In this document: one piece after another, positions 212-60,800 of the stretch
Position numbering within the stretch: position 1 is the stretch's first letter
Layout: each line of letters starts with the position of its first letter
The notes under the pieces: model-generated
Told to the model about the DNA's origin: nothing
The model's input: only the letters and a program-made list of their open reading frames with translations
The model's database searches: none
Source: Candidatus Omnitrophota bacterium
GTDB lineage: Bacteria > Omnitrophota > Gorgyraeia > JABMRG01
Direction: 5' to 3'
Assembly (NCBI GenBank): GCA_028716165.1
Contig: JAQUQI010000002.1
Location: forward strand, 183,829 to 247,828
Length of the DNA stretch: 64,000 nt
Translations under genes and position numbers: made by a program

Positions 212-493
212 TGATGACACGCGGGTCAATCCCAGATCCTTCGCGGCCTACTCTGGCCTCGCTTATCGCCGCTCTGGATGACAGGCGGAGAACGCCTGTC
301 ATTCCGAGCGAAGCGAGGAATCTGGTACTCATTTCACTCCCAGATCCTTCGCGACCTACGCTGGCCTCGCTTATTGCCGCTCTGGATGACAGGCGTATGA
401 CGCTTGCCCCGACTCGTGCCGCTCTGGATGACACACGGGGTCACCCTCTGTCATTCAGAGGAGCGCCGAAGGCGCGACGAAGAATCTAATACT
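212..493. repeat. Mosaic intergenic repeat array 1a. Modules seen: CCCAGATCCTTCGCG, CCGCTCTGGATGACAGGCG-n5-CGCCTGTCATTCCGAGCGAAGCGAGGAATC, and TGTCATTCAGAGGAGCGCCGAAGGCGCGACGAAGAATCTAATACT.
   Basis: Direct reading. The same modules recur at 11 other loci in the window in both orientations. ORFs in the track across this region (189..434, 211..489) are repeat-derived. Confidence 0.85.
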
Positions 494-764
494 TACTCAA
501 ATCATGCCAATTAGGGTTAAGCGTTTCTATTAAAGCTATTTTTTTCTCTCTGCTCCAGCCCTTAATCCGCTTTTCCCTGGTAATAGCGTCTTCTATATTA
601 TCTGTTGTTTCGTAATATACCAATTTGTCTATGTTATACTTTTTAGTGAAACCTTTGTTTGAATTATTTTTATGCTCAAGCACTCGTCTTTCTAAATTGT
701 TTGTAACGCCGGTGTATAATGTCTTGGAATGATTCGTCATGATGTAAACAAAATATTGTTTCAT
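486..764 (-). CDS. GIY-YIG nuclease family protein (URI-domain, YhbQ/UPF0213-like), nested inside repeat array 1
   Basis: 92 aa. Motifs YIMTN...LYTGVTNNLERRVLEHK and KRIKGWSREKK are typical of small stand-alone GIY-YIG proteins. Flanked on both sides by repeat modules. Confidence 0.65.
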   Translation of the reverse strand: MKQYFVYIMTNHSKTLYTGVTNNLERRVLEHKNNSNKGFTKKYNIDKLVYYETTDNIEDAITREKRIKGWSREKKIALIETLNPNWHDLSKY

Positions 765-3075: not shown

Positions 3076-4638
3076 ATGGCCAGAAACCTTTGCCAGAGGA
3101 GCCTGCAGATGCTTGCCAAATGCCAATCAAGGACAATAACCGGAACAAGTTCACGCCACATAGACGTTGAGGTTGATATCTCAAGCGGCATACGGTCATT
3201 TACCATAGTAGGCCTTCCTGATGCCGCCTGCCGCGAATCTGCCAAAAGAGTCATGTCTGCTATAAAAAATTCAGGTTTTAAGATGTCATGCTCAAAAATA
3301 ACCGTCAATCTCGCTCCTGCCCATCTGCGTAAAGAAGGCGCGATGTTTGACCTTGCCATTGCCATAGCAATATTGTCTGCCGAGTCCAAGATCAGCCAGA
3401 AGGCCTTGGACAGCAAGGTATTTTGCGGAGAGCTTTCTCTTGACGGAAGCCTTAGGCCGGTAAACGGTATGCTTTGCGTGGCAGATGATATTAAAGAAAC
3501 GCCTGATACGGAACTTATCCTGCCCTGGCAAAACATGCCCGAAGCGCGCGCGATAAATAATGCCCGATTAATGCCTGTTTCCTGCCTTGCTGAAACCGTC
3601 AGCTATATCGCCAATGGCACATTGCCCGAGCCAAGAGTTTGGCCTGCTTTGCCGGCTGATAATAATGAAAATAATGATATGGATTTTTCCGATATTAGAG
3701 GTAATTATCACGCTAAAAGGGCTGTAGAAATTGCCGTAGCCGGCGGCCACAATATATTGTTTATAGGCCCTCCTGGCACCGGCAAGACAATGCTTGCCCA
3801 GCGTATCCCTACCATTATGGGCGCCCTGACCAATGAAGAGTCTATCCAGACGAGCAAGGTTTATAGTATCCAGGGCTTACTTAATAACAAAAGCTTGATT
3901 ACCAGGCCGCCTTTCAGGGCCTTGCATCACTTTTCATCCGATGCCGGCATGCTCGGAGGCGGGTCAAATTATATAAACCCCGGCGAGATAAGCCTTGCCC
4001 ATAATGGCGTGCTCTTTCTTGATGAGCTTCCGGAATTCAGGCGCGATGTCCTTGAGGCGCTTAGACAGCCTATTGAGGACAAGGTTATCCGCATCACACG
4101 CGCCGGCAAATCAGTCACATATCCATGCGATTTCATGCTTGTTGCCGCCATGAATCCCTGCCCGTGCGGATATCTGACACACCCCAAAAAGACCTGCGTA
4201 TGCACACCCCATCAGGTCCACAAGTATTTATCTAAAATATCAGGCCCTCTCTTAGACCGCATAGATATGCATGTTGAGATAAGCCCGATTGATTACGACC
4301 AGTTATCGTCGGAATCAGGCATTGAGTCATCTTCCGCGATAAAATCAAGAATTGACAATGCCAAGGCCATACAGAGCGCGCGTTATCGCGGAAATAGATA
4401 TGCCCTGAACGCGCGGATTTCATATAAGGATATAGAAAAAGTATGCGCGCTCACAAAAGAGGCCTCTTCTATACTGAAACAAGCTATGCATGAATTGTTT
4501 GTAAGCGCTAGAGGATATGCCAAACTTCTCAAGGTGGCACGAACCATAGCTGATATCGCGGCAAGGCCTGTGATTGATGTTGAGGATATTGCTGAAGCCG
4601 TAAGCTATCGCAGTCTTGATACCCGCGCATGGCTTTAA
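3076..4638 (+). CDS. comM: YifB/ComM family Mg-chelatase-like AAA+ ATPase
   Basis: 520 aa. Lon-like N-terminal domain, Walker A GPPGTGKT, and a C-terminal ChlI-like region. The more likely start is the Met of MLAKCQS at 3106, by comparison with YifB N-termini. Confidence 0.8.
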   Translation: MARNLCQRSLQMLAKCQSRTITGTSSRHIDVEVDISSGIRSFTIVGLPDAACRESAKRVMSAIKNSGFKMSCSKITVNLAPAHLRKEGAMFDLAIAIAILSAESKISQKALDSKVFCGELSLDGSLRPVNGMLCVADDIKETPDTELILPWQNMPEARAINNARLMPVSCLAETVSYIANGTLPEPRVWPALPADNNENNDMDFSDIRGNYHAKRAVEIAVAGGHNILFIGPPGTGKTMLAQRIPTIMGALTNEESIQTSKVYSIQGLLNNKSLITRPPFRALHHFSSDAGMLGGGSNYINPGEISLAHNGVLFLDELPEFRRDVLEALRQPIEDKVIRITRAGKSVTYPCDFMLVAAMNPCPCGYLTHPKKTCVCTPHQVHKYLSKISGPLLDRIDMHVEISPIDYDQLSSESGIESSSAIKSRIDNAKAIQSARYRGNRYALNARISYKDIEKVCALTKEASSILKQAMHELFVSARGYAKLLKVARTIADIAARPVIDVEDIAEAVSYRSLDTRAWL

Positions 4639-4640
4639 TA

Positions 4641-5048
4641 TCTTGCCGAAGGCCCCCTCTGCCCTTGCGAGCGTCACGAGGCGAGGCCGGAGTCATACGC
4701 CTGTCATCCAGAGCCGCCGAAGGCGGGGCAAGCGTCATACGTGTGTCATCCAGAGCGGCGATCATTGAGGCAAGAGTCAGCCGCGAAGGATCTGGGTGTG
4801 ACCCCTCTGTCATCCAGAGCATCAGTACTAGATTCCTCGCTTCGCTCGGAATGACAACGGGTGCCCCACTTGTCATCCAGAGCGGCGATAATTGCGGCAC
4901 GCGTCAGCCGCGAAGGATCTGGGAGTGAAACGAGTACTGGATTCTTCGTCGCGCCTTCGGCGCTCCTCTTAAATGACAGTGGTGACTTTCGGAATGGCAA
5001 AAGTGGTACTCGGAATGACAGAAGTTGCCATCTGTCATTCAGAGCGGC
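4641..5048. repeat. Mosaic repeat array 2 (modules in reverse orientation: TGTCATCCAGAGCGG, GATTCCTCGCTTCGCTCGGAATGAC, GATTCTTCGTCGCGCCTTCGGCGCTCCTC)
   Basis: Direct reading. Starts immediately after the comM stop codon. ORFs 4529..4900, 4629..4928, 4746..5000 and 4861..5067 are repeat-derived. Confidence 0.85.
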
Positions 5049-5099
5049 AAAAAAAGCAACCTCTTAAGAAGAAGCTACTTATGGTGCTACAGATGCGGG

Positions 5100-5348
5100 T
5101 TAAGCCATTTGGAATATACCCATCAAATGCTTATTTATCATTCTGGGCTTGTTAGATGAAAACTTTTTTTGAAAGTCCACTATGGTTAACCCAAAAACTT
5201 TTTTAGTTATAGGGTCTTTTCTAATTATAATACCGTTTTCATCCATGTCACTAATTCCTTTTTTAGGAACGCCTAAGCACAAATAAAGCACATCCGCTGT
5301 TTTATCGTAGGCCATTCTTAGTGGAGCAAAAGGCTTTTGTCTATCCAT
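5100..5348 (-). CDS. DUF2283 family small protein (antitoxin-like partner of DUF4258)
   Basis: 82 aa. YDKTADVLYLCL ... GIIIRKD..TKKVFGLTIVDF matches the DUF2283 pattern. Overlaps the upstream small ORF by 31 nt. Confidence 0.55.
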   Translation of the reverse strand: MDRQKPFAPLRMAYDKTADVLYLCLGVPKKGISDMDENGIIIRKDPITKKVFGLTIVDFQKKFSSNKPRMINKHLMGIFQMA

Positions 5349-5692
5349 ATTAAATCACCTTTCTTCAATTTATCACTAATATAAGCAGTTTTTATAACTC
5401 TATTAATAATGTTTGCCACGACCACACGATAAAGGCTCTTACTTTTTATATTGTAATAAAGATAAATTTCTCTACTCTTCGTGCTTTCATATATAGCAAA
5501 TGTTTTGTCAAAAACTTTTTGTATAAATGTAACCGGGTTTTCAATTTCTGGGTGCATTAATCGGATATGTTTACAAGTATCAGGATACAGCTTGTATTTA
5601 TAACCTTTTATATCACTAAAATAACAAGTCTGCGCAATAATTTGATCACCAGCAGATATTTTTTTCTTCTTCATGTGGATATATATTATCAA
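5318..5692 (-). CDS. Small protein, possible DUF4258-like toxin partner. The start is more likely the Met of MKKKKIS.
   Basis: Overlapping two-gene cassette with the DUF2283 gene. The weak H..R....I motif (KHIRLMHPEI) is only suggestive. The assignment rests mostly on the conserved DUF2283/DUF4258 pairing. Confidence 0.3.
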   Translation of the reverse strand: MIIYIHMKKKKISAGDQIIAQTCYFSDIKGYKYKLYPDTCKHIRLMHPEIENPVTFIQKVFDKTFAIYESTKSREIYLYYNIKSKSLYRVVVANIINRVIKTAYISDKLKKGDLIWIDKSLLLH

Positions 5693-5769
5693 AAAAGATT
5701 ATATATATCAAGAACTATTTAAAACGGGGTTACGTCTGGGCTGACCCATGTGTCAGTATATGTATTGCA

Positions 5770-6226
5770 GGCGTCCTATTTGGACACACCCTATGTGCTC
5801 AATGGAAATGCCCCCTATCATCCAGAGTGGCCGAAGGCGGAGCAAGCGTCATACGCCTGTCATCCAGAGCGGCGATAATTGCAGCACGCGTCAGCCGCGA
5901 AGGATCTGGGAGTGAAATGAGTACTGAATTTTTCGTCGCGCCTTCGGCGCTCCTCTTAAATGACAGTGGTGACGTTCGGAATGACAGAAGTGGTGCTCGG
6001 AATGACAGAGGGTGACCCGCCTGAAAGTCAGTATTGGATTCCTCGCTTCGCTCGGAATGACAGGCGTTCTTCGCCTGTCATCCAGAGCGGAACCGGCAAA
6101 GTAAGAGTCGTTAGCGAAGGATCTGGGTGTGACTTCCGTGTGCCGTCCGGAGTGAGAGTACTAGATTCTTCGTCGCGCCTTCGGCGCTCCTCTGAATGAC
6201 AATAGGGATGCTCGGAATGACAAACG
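5770..6226. repeat. Mosaic repeat array 3. Terminal module E (GGCGTCCTATTTGG) is at the left end; CTCGGAATGACA-type units are at the right end.
   Basis: Direct reading. ORFs 5827..6015 and 5960..6199 are repeat-derived. Confidence 0.85.
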
Positions 6227-6234
6227 ATCTTGTC

Positions 6235-6813
6235 TCATTTAAGCTTTATGATTTTAGATTTAAAAATATTGTTCAGAAAAGGGTTCTTACCCTTTTTTTT
6301 CTTCTCAAACTCTTTATCGCTTAAGTTTATCACATTAAATTCGCGGCCTGTATCTTTCTGTAATATAGCGATGGCTCTTTGCAATTCCAAAACAGAATGT
6401 GTGCCAATAGCTAAAATATCTATATCGCTTGAAGAATCCATTTTGTTAGCCGCGTATGAACCGAATAAATAAGCTTCCTGAAGCCCTTTGATCCTATTAA
6501 CCATATCGCTAAGTTTTTTCTCTATACCGTAGGTTTTTAAGAATATTTGGCGATAATGCTCCAAAATCGGATTATTTTTCGCAAGGAAATAATATCTTTG
6601 CTTTCCACGAAACTCACTTTTTAAGAGGCCTCCTTTTTCCAATTCCTTAAGCTTGGTTTCGGTATTTTTAGGGTCAATTTCTAAAATCCTGGCCAACTCA
6701 TTAATGTAAGCCTGGGCATCGGGGTTAAGAAAAAAATAATCCAGCAATTTTATTGTTATTTTAGAACGAAAAGATATCATATTTTCACCATAATTATGGT
6801 AATAAATTACCAT
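6235..6813 (-). CDS. Winged-helix (ArsR-like) DNA-binding domain fused to a Pol-beta-type nucleotidyltransferase domain
   Basis: 192 aa. The N-terminal half is wHTH-like. The C-terminal half carries GSYAANKMDSSSDIDIL, the G[SG]x9-13Dx[DE] NTase signature. Confidence 0.55.
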   Translation of the reverse strand: MVIYYHNYGENMISFRSKITIKLLDYFFLNPDAQAYINELARILEIDPKNTETKLKELEKGGLLKSEFRGKQRYYFLAKNNPILEHYRQIFLKTYGIEKKLSDMVNRIKGLQEAYLFGSYAANKMDSSSDIDILAIGTHSVLELQRAIAILQKDTGREFNVINLSDKEFEKKKKGKNPFLNNIFKSKIIKLK

Positions 6814-6852
6814 AATTGTCTATTTTGTCAAGTGAATTATATGCGCGGTATT

Positions 6853-7088
6853 GGAGGCGTCCTATTTGCGGAAGTAAGACGAGTATTGGATTCTTCGTCG
6901 CGCCTTCGGCGCTCCTCTGAATGACAAGGCGTACTCCATGTGTCATCCAGAGCGGAACCGGCGAAGCCAGAGTCGTTAGCGAAGGATCTGGGGGTGAAAT
7001 GAGTACTGGATTCTTCGTCGCGCCTTCGGCGCTCCTCTGAATGACAGTGGTAACGCTCGGAATGACAAGCGAGGCTCGGAATGACACA
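6853..7088. repeat. Mosaic repeat array 4 (module E at the left end, reverse-orientation modules, CTCGGAATGACA units at the right end)
   Basis: Direct reading. ORF 6794..7096 is repeat-derived. Confidence 0.85.
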
Positions 7089-7118
7089 TGAGCCACCCCT
7101 ATAGCCTTTTAAGCCGCG

Positions 7119-7442
7119 TTATGACCTATCATTTAGACAGTTTTCAATATCCTTAAGGCGGGAATCAAAGTTGTCAAGGCGGTTTTCTATGTTTTCAAGG
7201 CGAGAATTTGTCTCAAGAAACCTGCGGGCAGTAAACTCATCAATACTTTCAAATATTATTAGCCCATTAACATCAGTTACTTGCGTTCCTTCCGGCACAA
7301 GCCGGTTTACAGAACCTACCTTTTTAAATTCCATACCCGGTTTGGGACCCACGCTTTGATTTTGCGGTTTGTCCTCGGCAAAAGAGCAGGTATTGACAGC
7401 AAATATCAATATCATTACGCATAATATAGCGGGTATTTTCAT
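7119..7442 (-). CDS. Small secreted hypothetical protein (signal peptide)
   Basis: 107 aa. N-terminal MKIPAILCVMILIFAVNTCSFA. C-terminal half is charged and coiled-coil-like. Confidence 0.4.
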   Translation of the reverse strand: MKIPAILCVMILIFAVNTCSFAEDKPQNQSVGPKPGMEFKKVGSVNRLVPEGTQVTDVNGLIIFESIDEFTARRFLETNSRLENIENRLDNFDSRLKDIENCLNDRS

Positions 7443-7443
7443 A

Positions 7444-8445
7444 TTATCCGCGTGCCCTTTCTGTTATTTTCATGATTTTATCAAAAACCTCATCAACCCT
7501 TATCTCCTGCATACACGGGCCAAAATCATGCCTTATCACGTCTTTGTTGCAAACTACATTCATCCCCGGACAGCACGGCATGCATGGCAAAGTTTTTGCG
7601 GCCCTTACTATGTTATGGCGGTGAAAATACGGATAAAAACAATCAATAGATGTCGGGCCGTATAGGCCTATGCTATTGATGCCCATACAGCTGGCAATGT
7701 GTAAAAGGCTTGAATCAGGCCCGATAAAGACATTGCACTTACTTATTAAGGCGATGGCCTGTTCTAAAGTAGTCTGGCCCGCCCTTATTATATCGGCCGA
7801 AAGCGATGACAATACGGTGCTTGAGAATTTACTCCCGTCACTCTTGCCAAGGGCGATTACTTTCAAGCCTTTTTCGCGCTTTAACCTGTCCGCTAAGCTG
7901 TTCCATCTTTCAACAGGCCAGCTTTTGAGCGTCCATGCCGCCAAAGGCATTATACCGGCGATGGCCTCGCCTTGCCTGATATTATTTTTTTTAAAAAAAT
8001 CAAGGGCGAAATCTTCGTCTTTTCGCGCGAGAGCAAAATCAAAACGCGCCGAAGGGCAATTTATCCCATTTTGCCTTAACAGGGCAAGATATCTATCAAC
8101 AGGGTGTATATGGGCATTTTTATTGTTCCCAACGCTCCATACCGAACGTGAGCGCAAAAAAACATATCTGGCAGAGCTTTTGAGCGCGATTGCCAGGTCA
8201 AAGTTTGTTTTTCTTAAACCCATGACAAACCTGGCCTGGTTTATAAAACCTTTGTCCGCGCCGCTCCTGTCATAGATTATCACATTATCTATGCCTCTGT
8301 ATCCTTCCACGAGTTCGCGGCAGCGCGGCGATGTCACAAAAGACAACACAGCGCCGGGATAGGCATCTTTCAAAGGCCGCACAACGGCCATATTATAGCA
8401 AACATCGCCGATATTGGAATGCCCGATAATCAGTATATTTTTCAT
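7444..8445 (-). CDS. Glycosyltransferase family 9 (ADP-heptose:LPS heptosyltransferase-like)
   Basis: 333 aa. N-terminal ILIIGHSNIGDV and overall architecture typical of RfaF/RfaC-type GT9 enzymes. Confidence 0.65.
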   Translation of the reverse strand: MKNILIIGHSNIGDVCYNMAVVRPLKDAYPGAVLSFVTSPRCRELVEGYRGIDNVIIYDRSGADKGFINQARFVMGLRKTNFDLAIALKSSARYVFLRSRSVWSVGNNKNAHIHPVDRYLALLRQNGINCPSARFDFALARKDEDFALDFFKKNNIRQGEAIAGIMPLAAWTLKSWPVERWNSLADRLKREKGLKVIALGKSDGSKFSSTVLSSLSADIIRAGQTTLEQAIALISKCNVFIGPDSSLLHIASCMGINSIGLYGPTSIDCFYPYFHRHNIVRAAKTLPCMPCCPGMNVVCNKDVIRHDFGPCMQEIRVDEVFDKIMKITERARG

Positions 8446-10580: not shown

Positions 10581-11304
10581 ATTGGCCTGTAATTGCCCTA
10601 ATTTTAATGATGAAAAGCCCCAAAAGCATTCTTAATGAATCTCTGATAACCCTTATCTTGGAATCTCTCCTGTTCAGCCATACCACAGGGACCGGCTTTA
10701 CGGCATAGCCCAAAAGGCCGGCAAGATACAAAATCTCTACATCAAAACAAAAACCCATATGCTTTTGCATTTTAAAAATGTCATGCGCCGCCCTCCGGGT
10801 AAATAGTTTGAATCCGCATTGGGTATCATGAAATTTTGTCAGGCCAAGCAGGCGCGTAATAAAATTAAAGACCCTTCCCATGCCGCGCCTCATAACAGTC
10901 TGGTTCAATATTACAGACCCTTTTGCCGTCCTTTCGCCGATAATAATGTCATAATTATCGGCCGTCAAGGCAAGCATCTTGTCAAGCTCTTCAATGGGGG
11001 TTGAAAGATCGGCATCACAAAAGGCGATATAATCCCCAGACGCGGCAAGCATACCGCAATTAACGCTAAAACCTTTACCCTTATTGACCGGGCTTGATAT
11101 GGCCCTTATCTGACAAAATCTACGCGCTAAATCCGCCACGATAACTCCGGTTTTATCGGAGCTGGCATCATTAACAACTATTATTTCAAAAGTAATTTTC
11201 TTGGCGGTAAAATACGCCAGTATTTTTTTTAAGTTTTGGGCAATTACCTTTTCTTCATTATATGCCGGTATTACCAGCGAAATGGATATACGATCGGTTG
11301 TCAT
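10567..11304 (-). CDS. GT2 family glycosyltransferase (polyprenol-phosphate sugar transferase-like)
   Basis: 245 aa. LVIPAYNEE...VNDASSD...CDADL motifs of GT2 / dolichol-P-mannose-synthase-like enzymes. Confidence 0.7.
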   Translation of the reverse strand: MTTDRISISLVIPAYNEEKVIAQNLKKILAYFTAKKITFEIIVVNDASSDKTGVIVADLARRFCQIRAISSPVNKGKGFSVNCGMLAASGDYIAFCDADLSTPIEELDKMLALTADNYDIIIGERTAKGSVILNQTVMRRGMGRVFNFITRLLGLTKFHDTQCGFKLFTRRAAHDIFKMQKHMGFCFDVEILYLAGLLGYAVKPVPVVWLNRRDSKIRVIRDSLRMLLGLFIIKIRAITGQYEKR

Positions 11305-14076: not shown

Positions 14077-14131
14077 TTACTTCGGATGGCATAGTACGAA
14101 GGATGCCTTAAAACAGGACATTTGCAACAAC

Positions 14132-16304: not shown

Positions 16305-16630
16305 AAGCGGCTCTGTCATTGGGAGCAAAGCGAGGAATCCAGTACTCATTTCACGCCCAGATCCTTCGCGGCCGAGGCGTGCTTCGCCTTGTGCCGCTCT
16401 GGATGACAGGTGGGGTACTCCCAGATCCTTCGCGGCCGAGGCGTGCTTTGCTTGGCTGTCGCTCTGGATGACAGGTGGGGTACTCCCAGATCCTTCGCGG
16501 CCGAGGCGTGCTTCGCCTTGTGCCGCTCTGGATGACAGGCGAAGAACGCCTGTCATTCCGAGCAAAGCGAGGAATCTAATACTCGTCTCACTCCAGAAAT
16601 AGGACGCTTGCAATACTCGATACCCGCGAT
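16305..16630. repeat. Mosaic repeat array 6 (forward-orientation modules; module E in reverse, CAAATAGGACGC, at the right end)
   Basis: Direct reading. ORFs 16236..16613 and 16276..16602 are repeat-derived. Confidence 0.85.
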
Positions 16631-27940: not shown

Positions 27941-28400
27941 ATTTGGGGCAAAACGCCTGTCACTCCAAGCGCTACATCTGTCATTCCGGACGGTACATAC
28001 GGGTCAATCCCAGATCCTTCGCGGCCTACTCTGACCCCGACTCCTGCCGCTCTGGATGACAGGTGAAGTACACCTGTCATTCCGAGCGAAGCGAGGAATC
28101 TAATACTCGTCTCACTCCCAGATCCTTCGCGACCGAGGCGTGCTTTGCTTGGCTGTCGCTCTGGATGACACATGGGTCAACTTTGTCATTCAGAGGAGCG
28201 CCGAAGGCGCGACGAAGAATCTAATACTGGCTTCACTTCCAGATCCTTCGCTAACGACTCTTGCCTCGCCGGTTCCGCTCTGGATGACAGGAGCATGACG
28301 CTTACCCCGACTCCTGCCGCTCTGGATGACAGGCGGGATACTTCCCGTTGAGCACGCAGGGTGTCTCCAAATAGGACGCCTGCGATATTCGATATTGCGA
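27941..28400. repeat. Mosaic repeat array 9 (forward-orientation modules; module E reverse, CCAAATAGGACGCC, at the right end)
   Basis: Direct reading. ORF 27895..28173 is repeat-derived. Confidence 0.85.
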
Positions 28401-42518: not shown

Positions 42519-42892
42519 GGCCGCTCCGCGTGTCATCCAGAGCGGCGATAATTGGGGCAAGAGTCGTTAGCGAAGGATCTGGGAATGAAGCGTGCGTCAT
42601 CCAGAGCGGCGATAATTGGGGCAAGAGTCGTTAGCGAAGGATCTGGGAATGAAATGAGTACTGGATTCTTCGTCGCGCCTTCGGCGCTCCTCTGAATGAC
42701 AAAGTGATGCGCCTGTCATCCAGAGCGGCACGAGTCGGGGTCAGAGTAGGCCGCGAAGGATCTGGGAGTGAAATGAGTACTGGATTCTTCGTCGCGCCTT
42801 CGGCGCTCCTCTGAATGACAGAAGTGGTGTTCGCAATGACAGAAGTGACGTTCGCAATGACAGAAGTGACGTTCGCAATGACACCAGATAAT
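42519..42892. repeat. Mosaic repeat array 10, with a ~64-bp tandem duplication (42527-42655) and 3 x 21-bp tandem units GACAGAAGTGACGTTCGCAAT (42827-42889)
   Basis: Direct reading. Lies between the dnaE start and the IMPDH-like stop. Confidence 0.85.
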
Positions 42893-48892: not shown

Positions 48893-51800
48893 TTATACTG
48901 CCTGTTTTATCATATTGCCTATGCGCTCAATCGTCTCTCTGTCAACAGGCTTTATCTTTACCACGCCTTCAAGAGAATCGGCATTGGCAAACATATAACG
49001 CATCTCCTCATCAGAAATACCAATATCAATACCCGCATTTCTCAAATTCTCGGCAAACTGCCTAAACGGCATCTGGAATACAGCAAAGATAACCTGGACC
49101 GCCGTAACCATATTGTCCGCCGTCTCAAAGCCCTTCTCAACCTCAACATATCTTATATGTTCCGCGCGAATATCCACCATTTCACCGGCATCCGAATAGA
49201 CAATTGTAGCGGCATTTACCGGTTCAAGCCCGGCCACGCCCTTGGCTTTTACGCCGTAGGCGCCTAATAGCTTTATGGCATCATGGCTGTTATTGCCATA
49301 AACACTTATATTGAGCATATCCTGTTCTTCCTGCGGCAGATTATTTACGATAGCGCCTAATGTTATTGCCAATGATTCGGTTACGGTATTAGCTTCAAAC
49401 ACATAGGCATTGCCTGTTGCTATGTTCATATATTGAGGCTTTTCAATAGCGGCAATAACCAGCTTTGATATGGCAAGCACCATATCCTGCGTCAATTCGC
49501 CCTTGACTTCAAACTGGCTCATCCTGGGCTTGATTACCATTATGTCAAATATAGGATTGACAAATCCATTCCTAATGCCTTGGGGAAGGCCTTCTATATC
49601 GCTTAAATCCCTCTCCAGAGCCTCTATGGTTTCGCCCTTTCGCTTATTGATATCAATGGTTTTTGACAGTGCCGCAACAAGTTCCTGTCTCTCGCTGGGA
49701 TCTATTATCCGCTGTTTTACCAGATCAAGGTTACCCATTATTATGCCGAGATCTTCATAAAGCTTTTTGACCTGCTTTATTGTAACGCCAAGATAATCAG
49801 CCTGCGCGCCAAAAGGATCACTGCCCGCTCTTGCCGCGGCTATACCAGCCAGTATTGAAGATAGTATTGCGGCGCCATTACTGCCGAACAGGCCTAATGC
49901 CTCAATAAGCAATACAGGCATCTGAATCCTCTCGCCCAATTCGGTTATGCCTAATCCGGCAAAACCATCATGAGGCTTATTAGACGAGAGAACAAGGTCA
50001 ACATTATTATCTTTTATAATGCCGGCTATCCGTGAAGCAATAAGCGGGTCAAAGCCTGCCAAGGCGTCCTGCGCGCTTACTATGCCTGCCGACGCCTGCT
50101 TAGCTGTCGGGATTGCGGCTGACGCTGCTTTATTGGTTAGCGAAGCTAATAGTTCAGAATCAAGCATTTTCTCAATACCCGCTATCTCATTTGCCAGTTG
50201 CGCTACTTCATCAGGCGTCAAATTCCCTTTTGTTTTTGCAATAAGACCGTCAATATTAATATTCATCGCTTGGAGTATATTCTTATTATTATTAAGTTCC
50301 GCCGCGCGGCTCTCTAACGCGAATTTGGCTATAAGATTATATATTTTATCTTTGAGCCCTACAAAGTCCGGGGTTTCTTCCGCCATCTCTTTTGCTATAG
50401 CATCAGCAATGTCAGCGCGCAGAGACTCATTACCTTCTATAATTTCAATATCATAAGGAAGCGGTCTTGTGTTATTGTTACTGCTTCTTTGAGCCATGCT
50501 ATTTGTAATCTTTTCAACTACCCGCTTCCAGTCAGTTATCAATGATCTCTTGCCGGTTGCGTCGTCTTTATCCGTGAAATCCCTGATATGGCCTGCCAGG
50601 CCAGTCTTGCCTGTCATCAGGCTCGCGTTCCTTATAAGGCCGCTTACTTCCTGCTTGAGATCAGCTATCTCTTTTTCCTCTAAACTGTATAATATCTTTT
50701 CAAGATTATAGTCAATGGCAGTATAATTGCGCAATTCCTCGGCAATCTGCTGGAAGGGTTTGGATATATCGTCCGTATGCGAAAGCTCATGGATGAGTGT
50801 TTCAAATATAAGATATGATGCCGCTCTCTTGCCTTTTGATGTATCAAGTGACATCATACCTGACATGGTCCTGACCCATTGATCTGAAAGCTCTATTGTA
50901 GCTAGGCTATTGCCTTCTTCCTCAAAGGTTACCCTAAGGTTTACATCCTTGTCGGCAATACTGCCGATATCATTGCGATTGACCCTCCTTATAACAATTC
51001 CTCCCTGGTTGTTGTCATCTCTATAGCCGGAGCCGTATTTGGCCGCGTGCATAATAGCATCAAAGAGTTTCTGCAAGTCAGGATTATCTTTTATAAGCTC
51101 CTTTAATATATTAACGGCATCCTCTGTGCCTGCCATTATAAGCTCTATCAGCTCCACGTCTTTTTCACTTCCATCCTTGACTACAACAAACTTATCGTTT
51201 TCGTCAATAGTGAGCTTGATGCCATTACCGGCTGATTTTGTAAAATCGCTGTAAAGGTCAAGTTCGCTGTTGGGTATCGGGATAGGTCTAGTAGATAATG
51301 CCGGACCTTCTTTAGAATATACATCTTCAGCCAGCTCATGCACATCAGTATATGATAAAGGCGCGGCGCCTGTTTCAGCAAGGAAAAGTTTCTTGACTAT
51401 GGCTACAAGCACTTCTATTTCGGTAGGTGTTAACGTGATCTTGCCCACAGCCTTTGCCCACGCTTTGATATATTCCTCCGCCTTGTCAGCCATTCCCATA
51501 CTATCATAGGCGCCTGCATCATTGATATTATCTTTTTGAGAATAAAAGTCTACCATCAGCCTGGCCGCTTTTTCAAGGTCTTTAATGCCCGGCTTATAAC
51601 CAGCTACTGCCTGGGAACGAATTTCATCCATTGCTTTGCCGATATCAGGTAAAAACACGCATTCAAGGGCTATTTTTACTTCATCACTAAAGTTTAAGCT
51701 ATCTATCGCAGATAAGAGTTTATCTCTGCCGGCCGTGATATTATTAAAGAAGTCGTGCTTTATTATGCCCTTTTGGTTAAGCTCAATAAGCCTGTTCTTT

Positions 51801-54800
51801 ATGGCATCCCTGGCATGGTTAAGCCTGTATTCGGGGTCATCCGAGCTTATTAATAGAGCGCTCGCGCCGTGAGTACATGTTACTATGACAGCAAGGTCGC
51901 TAATCTCAAGTTTGAAATCCGTAAACACGCTCTGAATGGCGGAAACCTCGCGGGCTATTAATATAAGGTTTTCAAGGTCAAAACCCGTAAGCCTGGATAT
52001 CATACCAGCGCGGTTGGCAATAGCCAGCACAATATCAAGTATGCCGGCGCCTTGTTTCTTACTGTCATCAAGCAAAAGCCCGGCCAATGCCTGCCTGTCA
52101 GGATCCTCGGGCTTTAAACCAAAGAAACGGTTCTTTATGGTATTTGCTATATTAAATAATATCATACCGCTTGGGGTAAGCCTATCATTTGAGATCATGT
52201 TATTAGCGGTTAAAAACTTTATAAATTCGTCTACTTCGGATTGAGGCATTCCGGGTTCATCGTTTTCTCCTTCGGATGACAGCAATGTCTTGGCCGCGTC
52301 AACTGTTAGAGTGCCGCTTTGCAAGTCATCCGTCTGCGGGGCATTGGGTATTTTGGCCAAAGCATCCTGGCCATGCTGATTGATCTTGCCAGCTTCTATC
52401 AGGATTTTGGAATATACAGCACCGGCAGTATCGGCGAGCATATAATCCACAAGCCTCCTGCTTGTAAGATAGATGTCCTTCCAGCTTTGAGCGTCAATTA
52501 ATGACATAGGCCCCTGCTCGGAAGTATAAATATCCTGATTGTATTCGTCAAGTTTTACCTTCAAATCATTAATCGCGTTCTGTGCCGTATCAGTTTTTAC
52601 TTTCTCTAATTCTTGTATTATGTTCTGAAGCACCTGCCTGGCAATCTCGGAATTTTTGGTAAATATATTTTTCAGGATTTCGCCGGCATCAGCTTCAGGA
52701 CTGTATCTCAAGTTGACCAACGCGTCAGCAGGGTCTATCTCCAAAAGCTTGCGGAACTCTTTATCTATAATATCTCCTTCTTTTGTGCCTGGTTTGTATG
52801 TAAGCAATAAATCTTTCAGGCCCTCTTTTAAATAACCCTGGGCTATATCAGCTATGATAAAGTAATTGGTCGCGGAAACCTCCATAGCGCTCTTGACCTT
52901 GAAAGCGAATTGAGCGGCTTCAAGCATTGCCTCTCCCTTAAGTTTGTCAAAATTATCAAATTTCCCTGCTTTGAAAACTTCCAATAGTATTTGCGCCTGC
53001 GTATCGTATTTATCACAGCCTAATATATTGCTTATTATATCAATATGTTTAGCCGCGTATGCAAGGCGTTCTTTAACTATACCTTCATTCATATATACGA
53101 CCCTTACCGCCTGGTCTGTGAACGGATTGCGAAAAACCCTGTGCAGAGCCTGCTTAAGCAGGTCTTCTCCGAGATAATCAGCTACTATGTGAATATCAAT
53201 GTCTTTGACATAATTCAATCCGACTATGCCCGCCTGGTTGGTAAATACTATATGGCCCAGGTGAGCTTTATCGGCGATCTCATTAGTGTTTTCAGTCATT
53301 GCGAGAATACTATATTCAGAGCCCATTATATATTCCGCGATTTTATCAGCATTCTTATCAATATCGTCAAACCATGTGATGCAATCTTCCAGCAATTTTA
53401 TCAATTCTTTTGACTCATGATTCTTTATCGCCGCTTCTTGAAGTTGTGTAAATTTAACTTTTAGCTTCTTCGCATAATCATCCTTGTGATCTTTCAGGCG
53501 ATTAATCAGCTTTTCCTTGACTGTTTTTATCAGGCCCTCCATTTGCGCCTGAGGAGCATAATTCAGGACGGCGCCGCGGGATACAAGCGATTCCAATATG
53601 CCCGCGGACATATATTCAAACAACTCTTTGTCAGTTTGATAAAGCGAAAGAAGATGCAGGACCTTAGGCATACCTACTATTTCCTTTGCATCAAAATCCA
53701 TAATAGCATTACTAATCATGTCCTTCACTTCGGATAATTCTTTTACAAATTGGAATCCTAACTTTTCAAACTTAGGGTTATCCATACGCTCATAATCAAA
53801 TTCAAGGCCTGTCAAAGGGCCAAGTATGGCCACTATTTCAGTATAGGTTCCGGAACCGCCGGCCATATCGGCATCACGGTGCATCCTGAATATCTCGCGA
53901 AGTGTTGACTGCATACTGGTACGGCTGACGGTAAGACCTTTAGGATCTACCAGCTTGCCTTCTCCTTCTTTCCAGGCAAGCGCTATTACATAATTAATAT
54001 CCTGAAATACGCTTCCCGGACTTGCCGTGCCTGTTGAAACAGGGCCTATCTTCTGGTTTTTGGCGTCAATAAAGTAATTTTCGTCCTTGACATGTTTTAT
54101 GGCAAGTATGACAGACTGTATCTCCGATTCCTTATAGCCCAGTTCAGTGAGCGCGGCCAATGCGGCTATATTTAAGAATATCTTGCCTGTATCCTTGTTA
54201 TAATACATGTACATATCGTGATCACCATTATGCTTTCGAAAATCGTCCAATTTAGTCAATTCTGCTATCTTTATCTCTTTACCATCCTTGGTAGTATAGC
54301 CTGCTTTTGACAGAGCCGTAGTGATAATATTTAAAAGAGCTTTTATCTTGTTCACGCGTTCTTCTGAGACCTTATCGTCGCTTTGTTCAGACACATTGTA
54401 TGTCTCTCTTATCTTTATCACACTGTCAAACTCATCTATCCTTAAAAGGTTTGTGGCTTCTACAGCACTTCTTAGGCCCTCATAGCCCATGGATGATAGC
54501 ATGGTCTGCAAATGGCCCCTTGCAGTCCTGCTCATAGCAATTATGACGTGAGGATCTTTTAAATCCGATATAAACTTATTCAGCGCGTCATCATGAGTGC
54601 CAACATCAAGCGATTTCATTTTCTCCATATATTCATCGCCGCTTTTAAGTTTTAAACCAAAGGCATTTAAAACGCCAAGGGGGCTTTCATTAAGGCCTTG
54701 CGCCGACTTGCTAAGATATTTTTTAATGGCCTCTTCGCTTTCAAGTATAAACATGGCGCGAAAATCATTGCCTAATACCAGGCTCTTGGCCGCCATCTCA

Positions 54801-57800
54801 ACAGCAAAGGCAAGGGTCTTGCCGCCGCTCATGCCAAGACTGGAGAATTTGCCTTCCCAGAGGCCGAATATAAATTCTTGCTGGGCCGGCCATTTTTTAG
54901 CGGGATCTTCAATAGCAAGAAATTGAGAAACAGCCAAAGACAATGCCAAAGCATCCTTGGAATCAATTGCCCTGCCCATACTGTCAAGACGTATAAGACC
55001 ACTCTTGGCTATTGAAGCCACCGTAGGCTTTAAGGCTAACTGTAATCCCTCCAGCTTATCTTTATTTTCCTGGTAAACACCGATTTTATTGATTAATTCA
55101 AGGCGGCCATTGCTCAATTTAGCCTGCTCGGCGGGGTCTGCAGTATTTTTCAAGAGCTCGTCTATTTTGTTAACGCCATCCTCCGATGCTTTTAACACTC
55201 TGTTAAGATAATCAATGCCATGACCCTTGTTGTCTTCTAAACATTTTTTTAACACTTCAAATCCCTTGCTCATCCTATCTGCCTCTGCCGCAAAACCATG
55301 GATTTTTTTAAAGTTATTAATTTTACGCTCAATATCTTTTATAATATTATCATCAATAATACCATCTTTAATAATACCATCTTTTACTAACGCGTCTATT
55401 TTCTTTGAAATATCGCGAATTTCCTTATAATTATCTTCCAACCATTTAACCAATAAATCCCTTTTTGCTTTTATCTCTTCTTCATCTTTGGATGTTATGC
55501 TGAAAGGAGACGCCTTTAAGAACCTGGCCACCGCGCTCTTTTTGTCCGCTCCAAGTTGAGCGTACATTTGCAAATTATCCTTCATTTCCTGAAGCTTTTC
55601 GTAATCTCCATCCACGGCCGTCTTAAGCATACTAAACGGCGTGTTTGTTTTTGACGCGGCCTTGATCGTGCCCGCGATGGCCCGCCATACCTGCATATCC
55701 GACAAGCTTAAGTGGCCCGCAAGCCATGCCAACTTGGAAACATTAGGCACAGCTACGCCGTTATTGAGAAATGCCGACAAGACCTTTTCTGAAAGCGCCG
55801 GCACCAGTTTAACGACAGCTACTATATTATCGGCAAGCGCCTGGTCTGCCCTCGTTGACAAGCGTATATCGTTGATTATGCTTAAAGCAAGTTCCGCCTT
55901 CACTGTATCCAGCCCGAGATTTTCTAACTTGCCTGACTGGCCGGAGACGGCAACTATTGCCTCAAGATTCAAAATTATATCTTTAAACAGGATCCTTTCT
56001 GATGCGCCAATCGGATCTAATTTACCTTTATACTCTGAATTGTATAGGCTCTTTACAGCCTTTGCTATGTTCGGCATAGCATTTTTTATGCTATCTATAG
56101 AGTCGGAAACCTTAAAATCAATCATCCTGTTTATAAGGTTCACTGCCGCGAACACCGCCTTGTAATCAACGGTAAAGTCTGCATTATTAAACAATGACAC
56201 AAAACCGCTAACGGTATTGTCTATAGAAGAAGAATCAAATACTGCGCCAAAACTTTGGGCAAACGCGCTCATAACAGAAGGCACAAACTCCAGCCATCCC
56301 TCCTGGCCCATATTCCATGATATTTGGGTCGCGGACTCAAGCATATTCGTAAGCGCGGCCTGTTTAACCCGGACGAGGAGATTGGATTCAGTAATAATCT
56401 CCGCCCATTTGGCATAGGTGTCGCGGATCAAGATTTTTGAATCGTCAATCGTTTTTTTATTATAGTTTGGATTTAAGCTCAATCCAAGCATGGCAGAGCT
56501 TAACAGGCTTGAGGCGCGCATTGTCGCGTCCATCAGTGTATCGAACGTATCCGGGTTATTATTGGCAGGATCATAAACAAACTCGTTTAATCGTTTGTAT
56601 AAAGACAAGGTTTTTTCAAAGATCATTTCATTGAAATCAGTATATTGACTCTTAAGGGGCATCATATCTTTTATGCTATAAAGGCCGCTTATCACGGCTG
56701 TGACATCGGTTTCACTAAGATTATCCGCGGAAATGTTTGTTATAATATTGTAGATTTTCTCCGCCGCGTTAACTTTTACCTGGGTTATAAAGCCTATTTG
56801 CTTATTATCCAGGCCGATCTTGCTTATTTCAACATCATGTAATACGCTTAATGTCTGGCTTAAAGCGGTGATCTTCTCCGAATCTGTGATTTGAACATTA
56901 CTAATTACTGCTTGAGCAATGCCCGTCACCTTGCTAACGGCATGTTTAAGAATCGCATTGTCATCAACCGTGTTTATTACATACTGCAAGCCGTTAAGTA
57001 CGCTTACGGAACCAGCATCGCCCAGTTGGCCAATATCAATTTTGTTTATGGTTTTATCTATATAATTAACCAAATTGCTCCTAAATTTGGCATCAAAGAA
57101 ATTGTCTGATTCAATTAATACGCGCGCGATAATATCAAGATTATACCCATTGCTGATGTCAGGGGTCGTCATAGCGTTTATGGCTATCTGCTTCAAATAT
57201 TGATGGAATTCGCTATCCAAAGAATTATCGCTAAGGACTTTATAAACTTCATCCATCAAAAATAGGTTTGTCAAAGACGGCAAAAACTGCCCATCATTTG
57301 CCAATTTACTAAATTCTACCTTTAACAGACTGCGCGCGTCAGTTTGAGTCTGCTCATTCATTGATTTTGGTACATTGAGGGCGCGAACAAGTGTCATCAT
57401 AGACTGATTGTATTCAGACGTATTAGCCGTAACGCTATGCCCTCTGAAATAATTTAAAGCGGTATTAATATTTTCTGCAGTCAGGTTAATAGCATTGCCC
57501 GTGAGCTGAATCTCTTTTTGGAAAGTGCCCAAATCGGGTATTATATTGTTGAAGACGGTTTTTAAACCTTCATTTTTAAATACCGGATTATTTATAACAC
57601 CGTTTAAACCGTCGGCTGATACTCCAATCGCATTTAAGTTTAGAAGATGGCCGTGATTTACGGTCTGGGCAGTGCTAAACAAGCTGCGTGAATTAAGCAG
57701 CTTCATACTCATCTTTGCCTGCGTGTTTATCGTATACATATCAGCGGCATATTGCATGAAACTGTTGTTTCCATAAATTTCAGAAAAGTTTAATTTAAAT

Positions 57801-60800
57801 GCCTCGGACTGGGAGTCTATTCGTTGTAAATTGTTCAAGAAATAATTTGTCTGCGCTAGCAAGCCCGCAAGCTGAATCCTTTGTGCGTCTGTCGCATTGC
57901 CGAATACTTCTTTATAGTTATCCAATAAAACGCCGGTTGCATGTAAAACGCGTGTCAAATTTTGGCCTAATTTCATTTTGCCGAATTCCTTGCCAAGAGC
58001 CTTCATAATACTATTTCTATCAGCGCCAGAGATACCCGCAAACTGGGTGATCACGCCCAATACTTGGTCAACCCCGCTTAAAGCGTTTATATAAGCGCTT
58101 GGATTCATATTGTATGACGTGTTGCCGTCCATGCTTAAAAATTCAACGACAAACTCCTGCGTATTGTCAGGCAAGCCTGAAAGAAACATCGTTTGCAAAA
58201 GAGGCTCAACCAATGCCTCTTCACACACCCCGCCAAGGCCTCTGCTGATAAAAGCGAAGAATTTACTCTTAAAGGAATCGGCCGCGCTGCCTGTGACAAA
58301 ACTACCGAATTTTAAAATGTTCTTGCCTATAAATTTCATGCCCTCATACGAATATTTTAAAAAGAATGATCCCGCGCTTTTAATACCGAAGGAAAAAAGT
58401 GTAAGGAATGGATTAGTTGCACTCCCCATTAGAGCATTAATCGCGGTAATTGAAGTAAGCGATTGCGCATGCGATTTCACAAACTGAACAGCCTTGCCTG
58501 TCCAAGTATTAAATGAACTCTTGAGCGGGGTTATAATTTTGCTTTGCATCCATGCGCCCCCCATATTCATGACAGGGCCTAAAAGAGAGAAAAAGCCGAT
58601 AAATGCCAGGCCTTCAGGCGTGCCAACATGATTTAGTATACTGCTATATGGCGAACCACTGCCCATATAATGCGTCGTATTAAGTATATCCTTCAAAAAG
58701 CCCGGACCCATTCTGCTTACGCTATCCTGATCAAGACCGGCAAGATTTAGGCCCAAGCTAATAGCTTTTGACATAGTATGTGTCATGAAACCTAAGCCTA
58801 CAGTCATATTATATGCTGCTGCAGGAATCGTGCCTAAATAGGTAACTAAGGGTTTTATAAACCGGCCGGCAGTCGAAACAACGCTGGATACATTAGCGCT
58901 AATGAATGCGAGCTTGGCGGCACCTAAACTACCGAGGTATCCCCATGTTAATATATCAACCACTATTTCGCCTATATCCAGAACATTACCATACCAGCCC
59001 CCCCAGCCCTGGTTTTTTCTATAGAGCGTGTCAATACTCGCATAGTTTCCTAATTCGCTTGACTTTGCCCACGAACCTAAAGTAAAAATATTGCCGAATG
59101 TCACGATCAACGAGTCCACAACCCATCTTACAGAATTCCCGATTCTGTTTACCCACAAAGCGGTAGGGCTAAAAGTATCAACTGCATTATAGCTTAGCTT
59201 TGAAGGATTAAAATAACCTGTCTGTGTTATCATTTCACTGCCATACCAGTAATTAACTTTATTTTGGGCATACCCTATAAGCGAATTATCAAAATAAAAG
59301 GTATCGTAATCCTCAGGCCCGAAGACACTATTACTTCCTCTTGGAGTTGATTCCAGAGAAGATACATAATGCCCATTTTTCCAAGTGTATTCAAATTTTA
59401 TAGGCTTGCCCCAGCCATCTGAACCGCTAGCCATAAAGCCTTCTAATGCGCCATTTTTAATATGTGTATAGCTATTAATTCCGTTATAGCCTACACTGGC
59501 GGTGACAGATGTTGTTTTTGAACTGGCAGTAAAACTAAGGTTGTCGTTTTGGCCTAAATTGGAATACCATGTCCAATTGACATTATCTGGATGTAACCCT
59601 GTTTGATGAGTTATGTCCTGTATAGAGGTATCAACTCTCGCCTTGTGCTCACTGGTTAAAGAACTGTATGGCACTACTTTATCAGCGTTTATAAAGGAAT
59701 GGTTAACGCCCATAGTAAGAACGATTGGCATGCCATCGTAAAGTGTGCCGGCCGACGGCAGTCCATATCCAAGCAAGCTGGAGAAAATTTCGGCGTCAGC
59801 AGAAGTGAGAGATCCTGCAAGAGTAAAACTCCACGAAACATCATCAAACAACTGGGTGGCATTTGCTCCATTAGGCCTGACGTATTCATATCTTAATCCA
59901 TAGTTAAGGCTCTTATCTGATGCAAATCCAAATTGCCTATTATTCAGGTTAAATATCATCTGGTCCAGCTCGTTTGTCTTTTTTGGAATCCCCGCCCCTA
60001 TTGCTTGGATTTCGGCCACAGCATATGGATTGGAGGAGATATCATGTGAGGTATTTAATTGTTCTTCTTGCATCAAAGCTTGAAGCTCATTTGTGTCTCG
60101 TGTAATCTCACGAGTCAAATCGTCTATTTGTTTTTGATTACTTACTCTATACGCTTCAGTCACTTTTCCAATCACGCCCATACCTTCTTCGCTTAACCCC
60201 GGCACATCGTATGTGCCATTAAGTATGCCTTGGACAATGTCAGAATCCATATCTATCAAATGCCCGCCTTGCTTAATCCAGCCCTGATTAATCGCAATCT
60301 CGTATAAACCTGTAATTACATTTTCGCCTCCATCATTTAATGCTAGATTTGTCAACAATACTCCAAGGGCCATTGGGTACATACCTGCTTTACCTCCGGC
60401 AATTGAAGCGGGCACAATCCTGAAGCGTTCTATACCGTGCTCTCTATAATAAATAGGCTCATAATTGTCAAGAGTCAAATCGTCATGCGCTTTTTTAGCC
60501 ACGACAATCTTGCCGGTTTCTTCTGCTGTGAAAGAATTGCTGTAAGCTGTTAAGGCATTCGTTACGTTGTCGTGGGCTATACTATAATTGTAAATACACT
60601 CTTTTATAGTACTAACTTTGTCTTTAATACGTGTATCTTTATTAATAAAATCTTTCGCGAATAACTTAAAGCCTTCTTCGCAATCAAATGGAGCAAACGC
60701 TTCTTTGGCTTTTACAACATTCTGGCGTAAGGTAGCAATGTTTTGTGGAATGTCGCCAATTATGCCAATATTATTTGGCATCTTCGTAACATCTTTTAAG

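Follow-up and report, generated by a model that had tools for sequence, protein, structure and literature searches.

Repeat arrays, a toxin-antitoxin-like pair and an orphan nucleotidyltransferase in a variable intergenic gap next to comM of an Omnitrophota bacterium

Introduction

Do dense intergenic repeats capture the small accessory genes that are found among them, or do repeats and genes come to share a permissive site by separate routes? This question is raised by a locus in a Candidatus Omnitrophota bacterium (contig JAQUQI010000002.1, positions 183,829 to 247,828; this 64-kb stretch is referred to below as the window), in which three repeat arrays lie, within a stretch of 2.5 kb, in the convergent intergenic gap downstream of comM and are separated by two small cassettes of the toxin-antitoxin (TA) or defence type. 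A previous sequence-only reading of this DNA had suggested that the arrays bound the cassettes and act as hotspots that capture them. From the comparisons described here it appears fairly probable that the gap is a permissive site of high turnover, reached independently by a lineage-specific repeat, a complete TA pair and a decaying nucleotidyltransferase-HEPN module. The gap turns over quickly in this bacterial group, and three items would have accumulated there in the lineage of the window, probably independently of one another. The first comprises three copies of a modular, polar, palindromic element, similar to repetitive extragenic palindromic (REP) sequences, bacterial interspersed mosaic elements (BIMEs) and REP doublets forming hairpins (REPINs), that has expanded in this lineage only. 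The second is a TA-like pair, putatively mobile by horizontal transfer, with its own promoter and terminator. The third is the antitoxin half of a PDC-M05 nucleotidyltransferase-HEPN module, whose HEPN gene would have been deleted up to its start codon, bringing the repeat element up against the nucleotidyltransferase stop codon. Coordinates without a locus label refer to the window throughout, and L-numbers (L001-L062) denote loci in other genomes.

The comM gap in related lineages

The gap is delimited by conserved anchors on both sides:

3109-4638, plus strand: comM/yifB-type Mg-chelatase-like AAA ATPase, left anchor (Pfam Mg_chelatase, ChlI and Mg_chelatase_C)
7119-7442, minus strand: secreted or coiled-coil-like protein of 107 amino acids (aa), right anchor together with GT9 (109-aa orthologue in L009)
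7444-8445: GT9, conserved right anchor together with the 107-aa gene (Pfam match)

Informative relatives were obtained from exact-protein look-ups of ComM homologues, a scan of metagenome contigs having returned only L028, which is the same as L009. ComM orthologues in L009, L051, L053 and L055 are 69-87% identical to that of the window. The closest genome found, the Candidatus Omnitrophota metagenome-assembled genome that contains L009 (ComM 87% identical), is perfectly syntenic with positions 1-17 kb of the window except at two places. Its comM gap (L009 11552-12175) encodes a 160-aa Y1 transposase of the IS200/REP-associated tyrosine transposase (RAYT) type (Pfam E=4e-14), flanked by 60-nucleotide (nt) inverted REPIN-like copies of a repeat that is also present at other intergenic sites of L009. 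At the site of arrays 1 and 2 of the window, L009 has 280 nt with a single repeat unit (type Z, described below) and one REPIN. An orthologous Y1 transposase (62% identical) occupies the comM gap of L055 (8540-9085), while in L051 (8534-9340) two copies of another REPIN flank a different Y1 transposase. L052, the ComM of which is identical to that of L051, retains one REPIN and no transposase (5497-5560), and in L053 the gap is a bare 55 nt. Neither cassette is found at the comM gap in any of these five related lineages, and no RAYT or Y1 transposase and no L009-type REPIN was detected in the 64 kb of the window.

ComM identities group the window with L009, apart from L051 and L053, which are joined by L055. 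This grouping suggests that a RAYT was probably present at the comM gap in a common ancestor and disappeared from the lineage of the window. RAYT/REPIN elements thus appear to be long-standing occupants of the gap that have been replaced in this lineage. The presence/absence variation across the five lineages, together with the occurrence of the TA-like pair elsewhere in a relative, bears out the hotspot proposed by the sequence-only reading, and the comM gap can be regarded as a genuine hotspot of gene turnover. The relatives were also inspected for the same genes at the same place without flanking repeats, and no such case was found.

Repeat arrays in the window

The three arrays in the gap were located almost exactly where the sequence-only reading had placed them:

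4641/4679-5048, plus strand: array 3, no head motif; units X', X', X, Z, X, Y, W and W, then the start of a truncated X
5735/5762-6226, plus strand: array 4, colinear with array 10 (27978-28387); a full-length element whose head motif is at 5762-5782
6848-7091, plus strand: array 5, a short element made up of Y, X, Y, W and W, its head motif at 6848-6868

Array 3 begins a few nt past the comM stop codon. The G+C content of the three arrays is 55-60%, against approximately 33% in the cassettes. Each array is composed of a limited set of units: X, of about 64 nt (GTCATCCAGAGCGG...GAAGGATCTGGG); X', of 41 nt; W, of 21 nt; Y (AGTACTGGATTCTTCGTCGCGCCTTCGGCGCTCCTCTGAATGACA, also given as ...GATTCTTCGTCGCGCCTTCGGCGCTCCTCTGAATGACA); and Z (...GATTCCTCGCTTCGCTCGGAATGACA). 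In addition, a 21-nt head motif, GTATTGSAGGCGTCCTATTTG, has four matches in the window (5762-5782, 6848-6868, 16596-16616 and 28368-28388; 0.00 expected, hence far more than by chance), each at the 5' edge of an array. Two of these copies come immediately after the stop codon of a core gene (that of a PHP phosphoesterase in one case, recO in the other) and two abut cassette promoters; a degenerate copy is present at about 14100-14125.

The arrays are not confined to the comM gap. Twelve are found in the 64 kb, and the motif cores alone occupy at least 3.6 kb (5.6%). All twelve are intergenic. By our own tally there are 17 gaps of more than 100 nt, and 12 of these are filled by arrays. Elsewhere in the window their neighbours include apt, a tRNA gene, glyQ/glyS, recO, dnaE, an IMPDH-family gene and a PHP phosphoesterase gene, and seven of the twelve flank housekeeping or conserved genes only. 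The proposal that the arrays specifically bound the cassettes is not sustained by this distribution, nor by the occurrence of both cassettes in other genomes without arrays. Most arrays begin 0-10 nt from the stop codon of a co-oriented upstream gene, and the order and polarity of units is fixed from array to array. Array 4, for example, is colinear with array 10 from head to tail over 414 nt, and arrays 5 and 7 are shorter versions of the same element. Relatives contain only scattered single units, of the GTCATTSCGAG type, which indicates that expansion into arrays is specific to the lineage of the window. Our literature search retrieved no description of this repeat family and no report of REP-like elements in Omnitrophota; the arrays document, in this phylum, composite palindromic repeats of one family that are very dense and specific to a lineage.

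The 29 X units fit an imperfect hairpin, in which 90% of cells pair, compared with 20-37% when the partner is slid, and two base pairs show changes on both sides. In some X variants the 5' and 3' halves are recombined. Hairpins are also formed at unit junctions (inverted arms I8 and I13), since GCTCGGAATGACA, one of the arms, is nearly the inverse of TGTCATCCAGAGC. On these features the arrays may be described as REP/BIME-like DNA. A CRISPR-like (clustered regularly interspaced short palindromic repeat) reading of the 64-nt X tandems was considered and rejected, as the seemingly variable centres are a few related variants that recur across arrays.

Palindromic DNA of this kind could also have a function, namely as terminators, RNA stabilisers or insulators that keep comM and the glycosyltransferase operon apart from two convergently placed modules of potential harm, the arrangement being maintained by selection. 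The arrays are usually located directly 3' of genes in the sense orientation, as is usual for REP/BIME elements in enterobacteria, and the nucleotidyltransferase of cassette 2 has kept its catalytic motif intact, its operator and promoter also being conserved. However, thermodynamic folding of single units is no better than that of shuffled sequence (z -0.8 to +0.5), arrays 4, 5 and 11 are antisense to their neighbours, and in relatives this gene junction spans 35-55 nt and is free of arrays. Rfam searches, at gathering or E<=1 thresholds, identified no family for the arrays and returned only a tRNA and a chance snoRNA match. A role as a selected functional unit is therefore highly improbable.

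Several further arrangements were observed along the window. Array 11 (42532-42883) lies between the IMPDH-family gene and dnaE, antisense to both, and contains two tandem X units that are 100% identical and 3.3 copies of the 21-nt W unit, a composition that suggests recent local amplification. Arrays 1 and 2 (189-1091) sandwich a gene for a 92-aa GIY-YIG nuclease (486-764, minus strand) that is co-oriented with both. The first repeat unit contains the stop codon of this gene, and its start follows array 2 at a distance of 30 nt, which leaves no room for a promoter of its own; the gene is absent from the syntenic site in L009. A single ORF (open reading frame) of 5022 aa (48893-63961, minus strand) almost reaches the end of the window. 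The ORFs scanned with Pfam and NCBIfam, the giant ORF and a few small ones being outside the scan, were all housekeeping or uncharacterised and included no recombinase.

Cassette 1, a PBECR2-like protein with a DUF2283 partner

The ORFs between the arrays are exactly those listed in the sequence-only reading, which took them for two small accessory cassettes; both are on the minus strand, both are of the TA or defence type, and only two start codons required refinement. The features of cassette 1 are:

5054-5080, minus strand: terminator-like hairpin and T-run downstream of the DUF2283 gene (from sequence)
5100-5348, minus strand: 82-aa DUF2283-type protein, putative antitoxin (Pfam, orthologue scores)
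5318-5674, minus strand: 118-aa PBECR2-like putative RNase toxin of the Barnase-EndoU-ColicinE5/D-RelE (BECR) group (family-wide Pfam scan)
5683-5723, minus strand: promoter-like site, TTGATA-17-TAATAT

The two genes are co-oriented and overlap by 31 nt, with the toxin gene upstream. Its start has been refined to give 5318-5674 (118 aa), following the call in L007, in place of the 124-aa ORF (5318-5692) proposed at first. The overlapping pair is present in every context recovered (L001-L006, L008 and L061). The sequence-only reading as a TA-like pair with a probable DUF2283 member was essentially right. The window protein scores 19.4 bits against PF10049, below the Pfam cut-off of 23, and its orthologues in L001 and L008, which are approximately 80% identical, exceed it with 24.0 and 24.5 bits. 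A more distant homologue of the toxin (P0126, ~40% identical) likewise has a neighbour annotated as DUF2283 (PF10049).

The identity of the upstream protein was reached only by way of a profile search and a family-wide Pfam scan. Direct searches of the 118/124-aa protein against Pfam, NCBIfam, PADLOC and the PDB gave no family match, and among 5.8 billion clustered proteins it has only three close homologues. A profile built from the three sequences recovered 41 distant homologues of about 100 aa, and when the 43 members of the family were compared with Pfam, 20 matched PBECR2, nine PBECR3 and a single one DUF4258. The Pfam families matched are phage-associated nucleases of the BECR group. The sequence-only reading had proposed a DUF4258-like toxin, which was close, in that the protein appears to be related to the BECR group, but on its family matches it is better called PBECR2-like than DUF4258-like. 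Members share the motif HIxxxHPE...LYY...VVV...IKTAY..IK.G..W. An AlphaFold2 model made from the family alignment has a beta-beta-alpha-alpha arrangement followed by five strands (predicted local distance difference test score, pLDDT, 91.9), for which Foldseek retrieved nothing significant from the PDB (E>0.1), the weak matches being RelE-type toxins such as BrnT (probability 0.77, E=0.37) and HigB. A rare and unannotated family would be assigned in this way to the BECR-group toxins with DUF2283 partners.

Copies in other genomes indicate that the pair may move. In L001-L006 it is found at 68% identity between a PMT_2 glycosyltransferase gene and a tRNA gene, in a region otherwise syntenic with 15.7-25 kb of the window, and at this site there are no arrays, only one hairpin unit downstream. 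DNA homology is confined to the promoter and the genes, its 5' limit against the copies in L001, L002 and L008 falling within 5683-5723 (AATAGTTCTTGA). No homologue of the toxin was found in the plasmid collection. Cassette 1 appears to be a self-contained TA-like pair that is horizontally mobile. In L001 the tRNA gene next to the pair is itself followed by about three tandem copies of a ~55-nt repeat (10975-11140; ACCAAATTTATATGCCAACGTTTGTTGGCAAAATTTGGTACGTGGCAAGCCATC).

Cassette 2, an orphan winged-helix nucleotidyltransferase

Cassette 2 consists of a single gene and the sequence upstream of it:

6235-6780, minus strand: winged helix and minimal nucleotidyltransferase of the PDC-M05A/minimal nucleotidyltransferase (MNT) antitoxin type, orphan (Pfam, PADLOC)
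6794-6831, minus strand: -35 element TTGACA (6826-6831) and perfect palindrome TTATGGTAAT.AA.ATTACCATAA (6794-6815), both with conserved DNA sequence in L042 and L047

The ORF reaches 6813 (192 aa), but a conserved start is located 11 codons downstream, at 6780 (M12), and would give a protein of 181 aa. As the upstream sequence is conserved, 6780 is the most likely start; conservation of the -35 element and the palindrome at the DNA level suggests both this start and autoregulation, and the segment is likely to be a putative autoregulatory operator and promoter of the nucleotidyltransferase module. Across the family, the annotated start of the 192-aa protein is inside the conserved operator palindrome, and a conserved GGTGA followed by ATG marks the likely real start.

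The 192-aa protein matches NTP_transf_2 (E=5e-9), Polbeta and, weakly, helix-turn-helix models in Pfam, and PDC-M05A in PADLOC (PDLC04368, E=5.1e-33). The GS-x10-DxD catalytic motif is intact (FGSYAANKMDSSSDIDIL). With respect to the earlier description of an MntA-like nucleotidyltransferase with a winged helix, the domain composition is upheld and the protein falls within PDC-M05A, but it is not MntA proper, as it scores 29.8 bits against the NCBIfam MntA equivalog NF047752, the cut-off of which is 60. More than 500 homologues were found. The best 120 listed are 77-84% identical and nearly all of 192 aa, and those among them with a named source are from Omnitrophota; the plasmid collection contains distant homologues only (25-29%). 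Some homologues are on short contigs, and the idea that these are assemblies broken by repeats was rejected, since they are low-coverage fragments.

In most of the homologous loci inspected, the nucleotidyltransferase has a partner. In L042-L050, L060 and L062 its gene overlaps, through ATGA, a gene for a protein of 131-132 aa with a PDC-M05B match, a weak HEPN match and an RSTAGHH (Rx4H) motif. PDC-M05 has been described as a nucleotidyltransferase and HEPN pair typical of TA modules, for which an antiviral role is unconfirmed (PMC12988326). DNA homology between the window and these two-gene loci passes the nucleotidyltransferase stop codon and ends at the ATGA (6235-6238), precisely at the start codon of the partner, and the last W unit of array 4 is 12 nt from this point. 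As the sequence-only reading had noted, there is no HEPN partner in the window, and no remnant of one was detected (best tblastn E=0.25). The end of homology at the ATGA, the lack of a remnant and the usual presence of the partner elsewhere indicate that cassette 2 is in all likelihood the surviving antitoxin half of a two-gene module. It would represent a clean natural case of decay of a TA or defence module, in which the HEPN gene has been lost exactly at its start codon and a putatively autoregulated nucleotidyltransferase survives. A partner gene has also decayed, independently, beside the 83%-identical nucleotidyltransferase of L057-L059; in L057 (5579-6423), for example, it is without a start codon, contains an internal deletion and is followed by an apparent transposase fragment.

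The nucleotidyltransferase-HEPN module occurs in varied accessory contexts elsewhere. In L047 (5935-7500) it is part of a small islet that contains a 109-aa integrase fragment beside tRNA genes and has, at its borders, a direct repeat of the tRNA 5' end (TTCGGGCCCATAGCTCA). L048 and L049 encode a second, divergent nucleotidyltransferase-HEPN pair in tandem.

The junction between array 4 and cassette 2 also bears on the order in which repeats and genes arrived. It is possible, though in our judgement not the probable course, that the cassettes were already in the comM gap when the element spread to gene ends, filled three sub-gaps and in doing so removed the HEPN gene. Such a course agrees with the lineage-specific expansion of the arrays, with their position within 0-12 nt of stop codons at many genes, with the completeness of arrays 4 and 5, each of which has its own head and is colinear with arrays elsewhere, and with the unit 12 nt past the HEPN start codon. 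However, L009 has neither cassette at its comM gap, hence the arrival of the cassettes is also recent; no target-site duplications or mobilising enzyme were identified, and there is no RAYT in the window. The near-identical duplicate that surrounds cassette 1 (see below) is explained no better by this course than by recombination.

Do the arrays capture genes?

Several observations weigh against the independent accumulation of repeats and cassettes, and the same observations are the best case for a more active role of the arrays. Cassette 1 is flanked by a 152-nt direct repeat (4871-5022 and 5858-6009) that is 94.7% identical, the best match among 66 array pairs, and that resembles what an integration of the Campbell type would leave. 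In the 17 kb syntenic with L009, all three lineage-specific insertions (the GIY-YIG gene and cassettes 1 and 2) have arrays on both sides, and the only sites with multiple arrays are the two with inserted genes, n cassettes being accompanied by n+1 arrays at each. Arrays 4 and 5 run antisense to the cassettes, contrary to the usual orientation of arrays, with the head motif directly at the upstream boundary of both cassettes, where their promoters lie; independent accumulation leaves this arrangement unexplained. The comparison covers one close relative (L009) and one independent context of cassette 1.

From these observations it could be argued that the arrays are active capture platforms that serve as sites of homologous or site-specific recombination, comparable to an integron without an integrase, and that cassettes integrate at and shuffle between intergenic sites. 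We regard this as doubtful. The arrays around cassette 2 are not specially alike (75% identity), and array 5 has its best match at 42.6 kb, some 36 kb away. The cassette junctions share only the head motif, which also occurs after the stop codons of core genes. Arrays are found on five of the five flanks of the three inserted genes, but this is only weakly surprising because arrays fill most of the sizeable gaps, so that adjacency is to be expected (rough p ~0.07, the flanks not being independent). As the majority of arrays flank housekeeping or conserved genes, both cassettes are found array-free in other genomes and there is no recombinase, integrase or transposase among the window ORFs scanned, capture by the arrays is a possibility and nothing here shows the arrays doing the capturing; of the sequence-only reading, the hotspot is supported and capture is not.

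A variant that we consider more doubtful still is that the polar, modular elements serve as portable regions of homology, or "landing pads", at which TA, nucleotidyltransferase and GIY-YIG modules integrate and excise by recombination between copies without an integrase. If true, this would explain why all the lineage-specific small genes lie between two elements and why a 94.7% repeat surrounds cassette 1. Were repeats truly to mediate the exchange of cassettes, they would constitute a new route of gene mobility.

We therefore return to the permissive gap as the fairly probable reading. The cassettes would have entered this convergent gap by horizontal transfer, and the repeats would be bystanders, which at most provided homology or fragile DNA for rearrangements, such as those that gave rise to the 152-nt direct repeat and the HEPN deletion, and would not form a dedicated capture machine. 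The nucleotidyltransferase may have been kept as an orphan antitoxin or repressor.

Comparison with known systems

As the evidence stands, the locus is an ordinary variable intergenic site whose parts belong to known kinds. The arrays resemble REP/BIME and REPIN-RAYT systems, which likewise consist of short imperfect palindromes that are extragenic, multicopy, clustered and often located just after stop codons (10.1101/2022.05.22.493013; 10.1101/2021.07.10.451892). Arms of the window units occur in both orientations (GCTCGGAATGACA...TGTCATCCAGAGC), and relatives carry a RAYT-type Y1 transposase with REPIN-like flanks at the same site. They differ in that at least five types of unit are combined into long (190-460 nt) composites, polar and colinear, in which a head motif is optional, and in their unusually high density (at least 5.6% of 64 kb). 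Furthermore, there is no RAYT in the window, and in sequence the units bear no relation to the REPINs of L009 and L051.

Small accessory genes, including TA modules, that are separated by palindromic repeats also recall an integron. However, no IntI or attI was found, the multi-unit arrays are dispersed beside core genes, and the cassettes have their own promoters and lie antisense to the repeats; with no integrase domain among the ORFs scanned and arrays beside core genes, the integron reading was rejected.

Cassette 1 corresponds to BECR/RelE-type toxins with DUF2283 partners in comprising two small overlapping genes, the putative toxin first and a DUF2283-type protein downstream, with a pairing that is conserved family-wide. 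It departs from them in that the window protein matches no Pfam model, belongs to a rare family and has weak similarity to solved RelE-type structures. DUF4258 and DUF2283 are known as a pair, and our literature search found no paper naming both.

The counterparts of cassette 2 are HepT-MntA (HEPN-MNT, type VII) and PDC-M05, with which it shares a minimal nucleotidyltransferase containing GS-x10-DxD, the usual partner of which is a small, overlapping HEPN-like protein with Rx4H. Unlike these systems, the window locus has no HEPN gene, and its protein has an N-terminal winged helix. Orphan antitoxins are known as "anti-addiction" modules, and cassette 2 would be similar to these in that an intact antitoxin-type gene, together with its own putative operator, appears to have been left after loss of the toxin, a loss that would have occurred independently in L057-L059.

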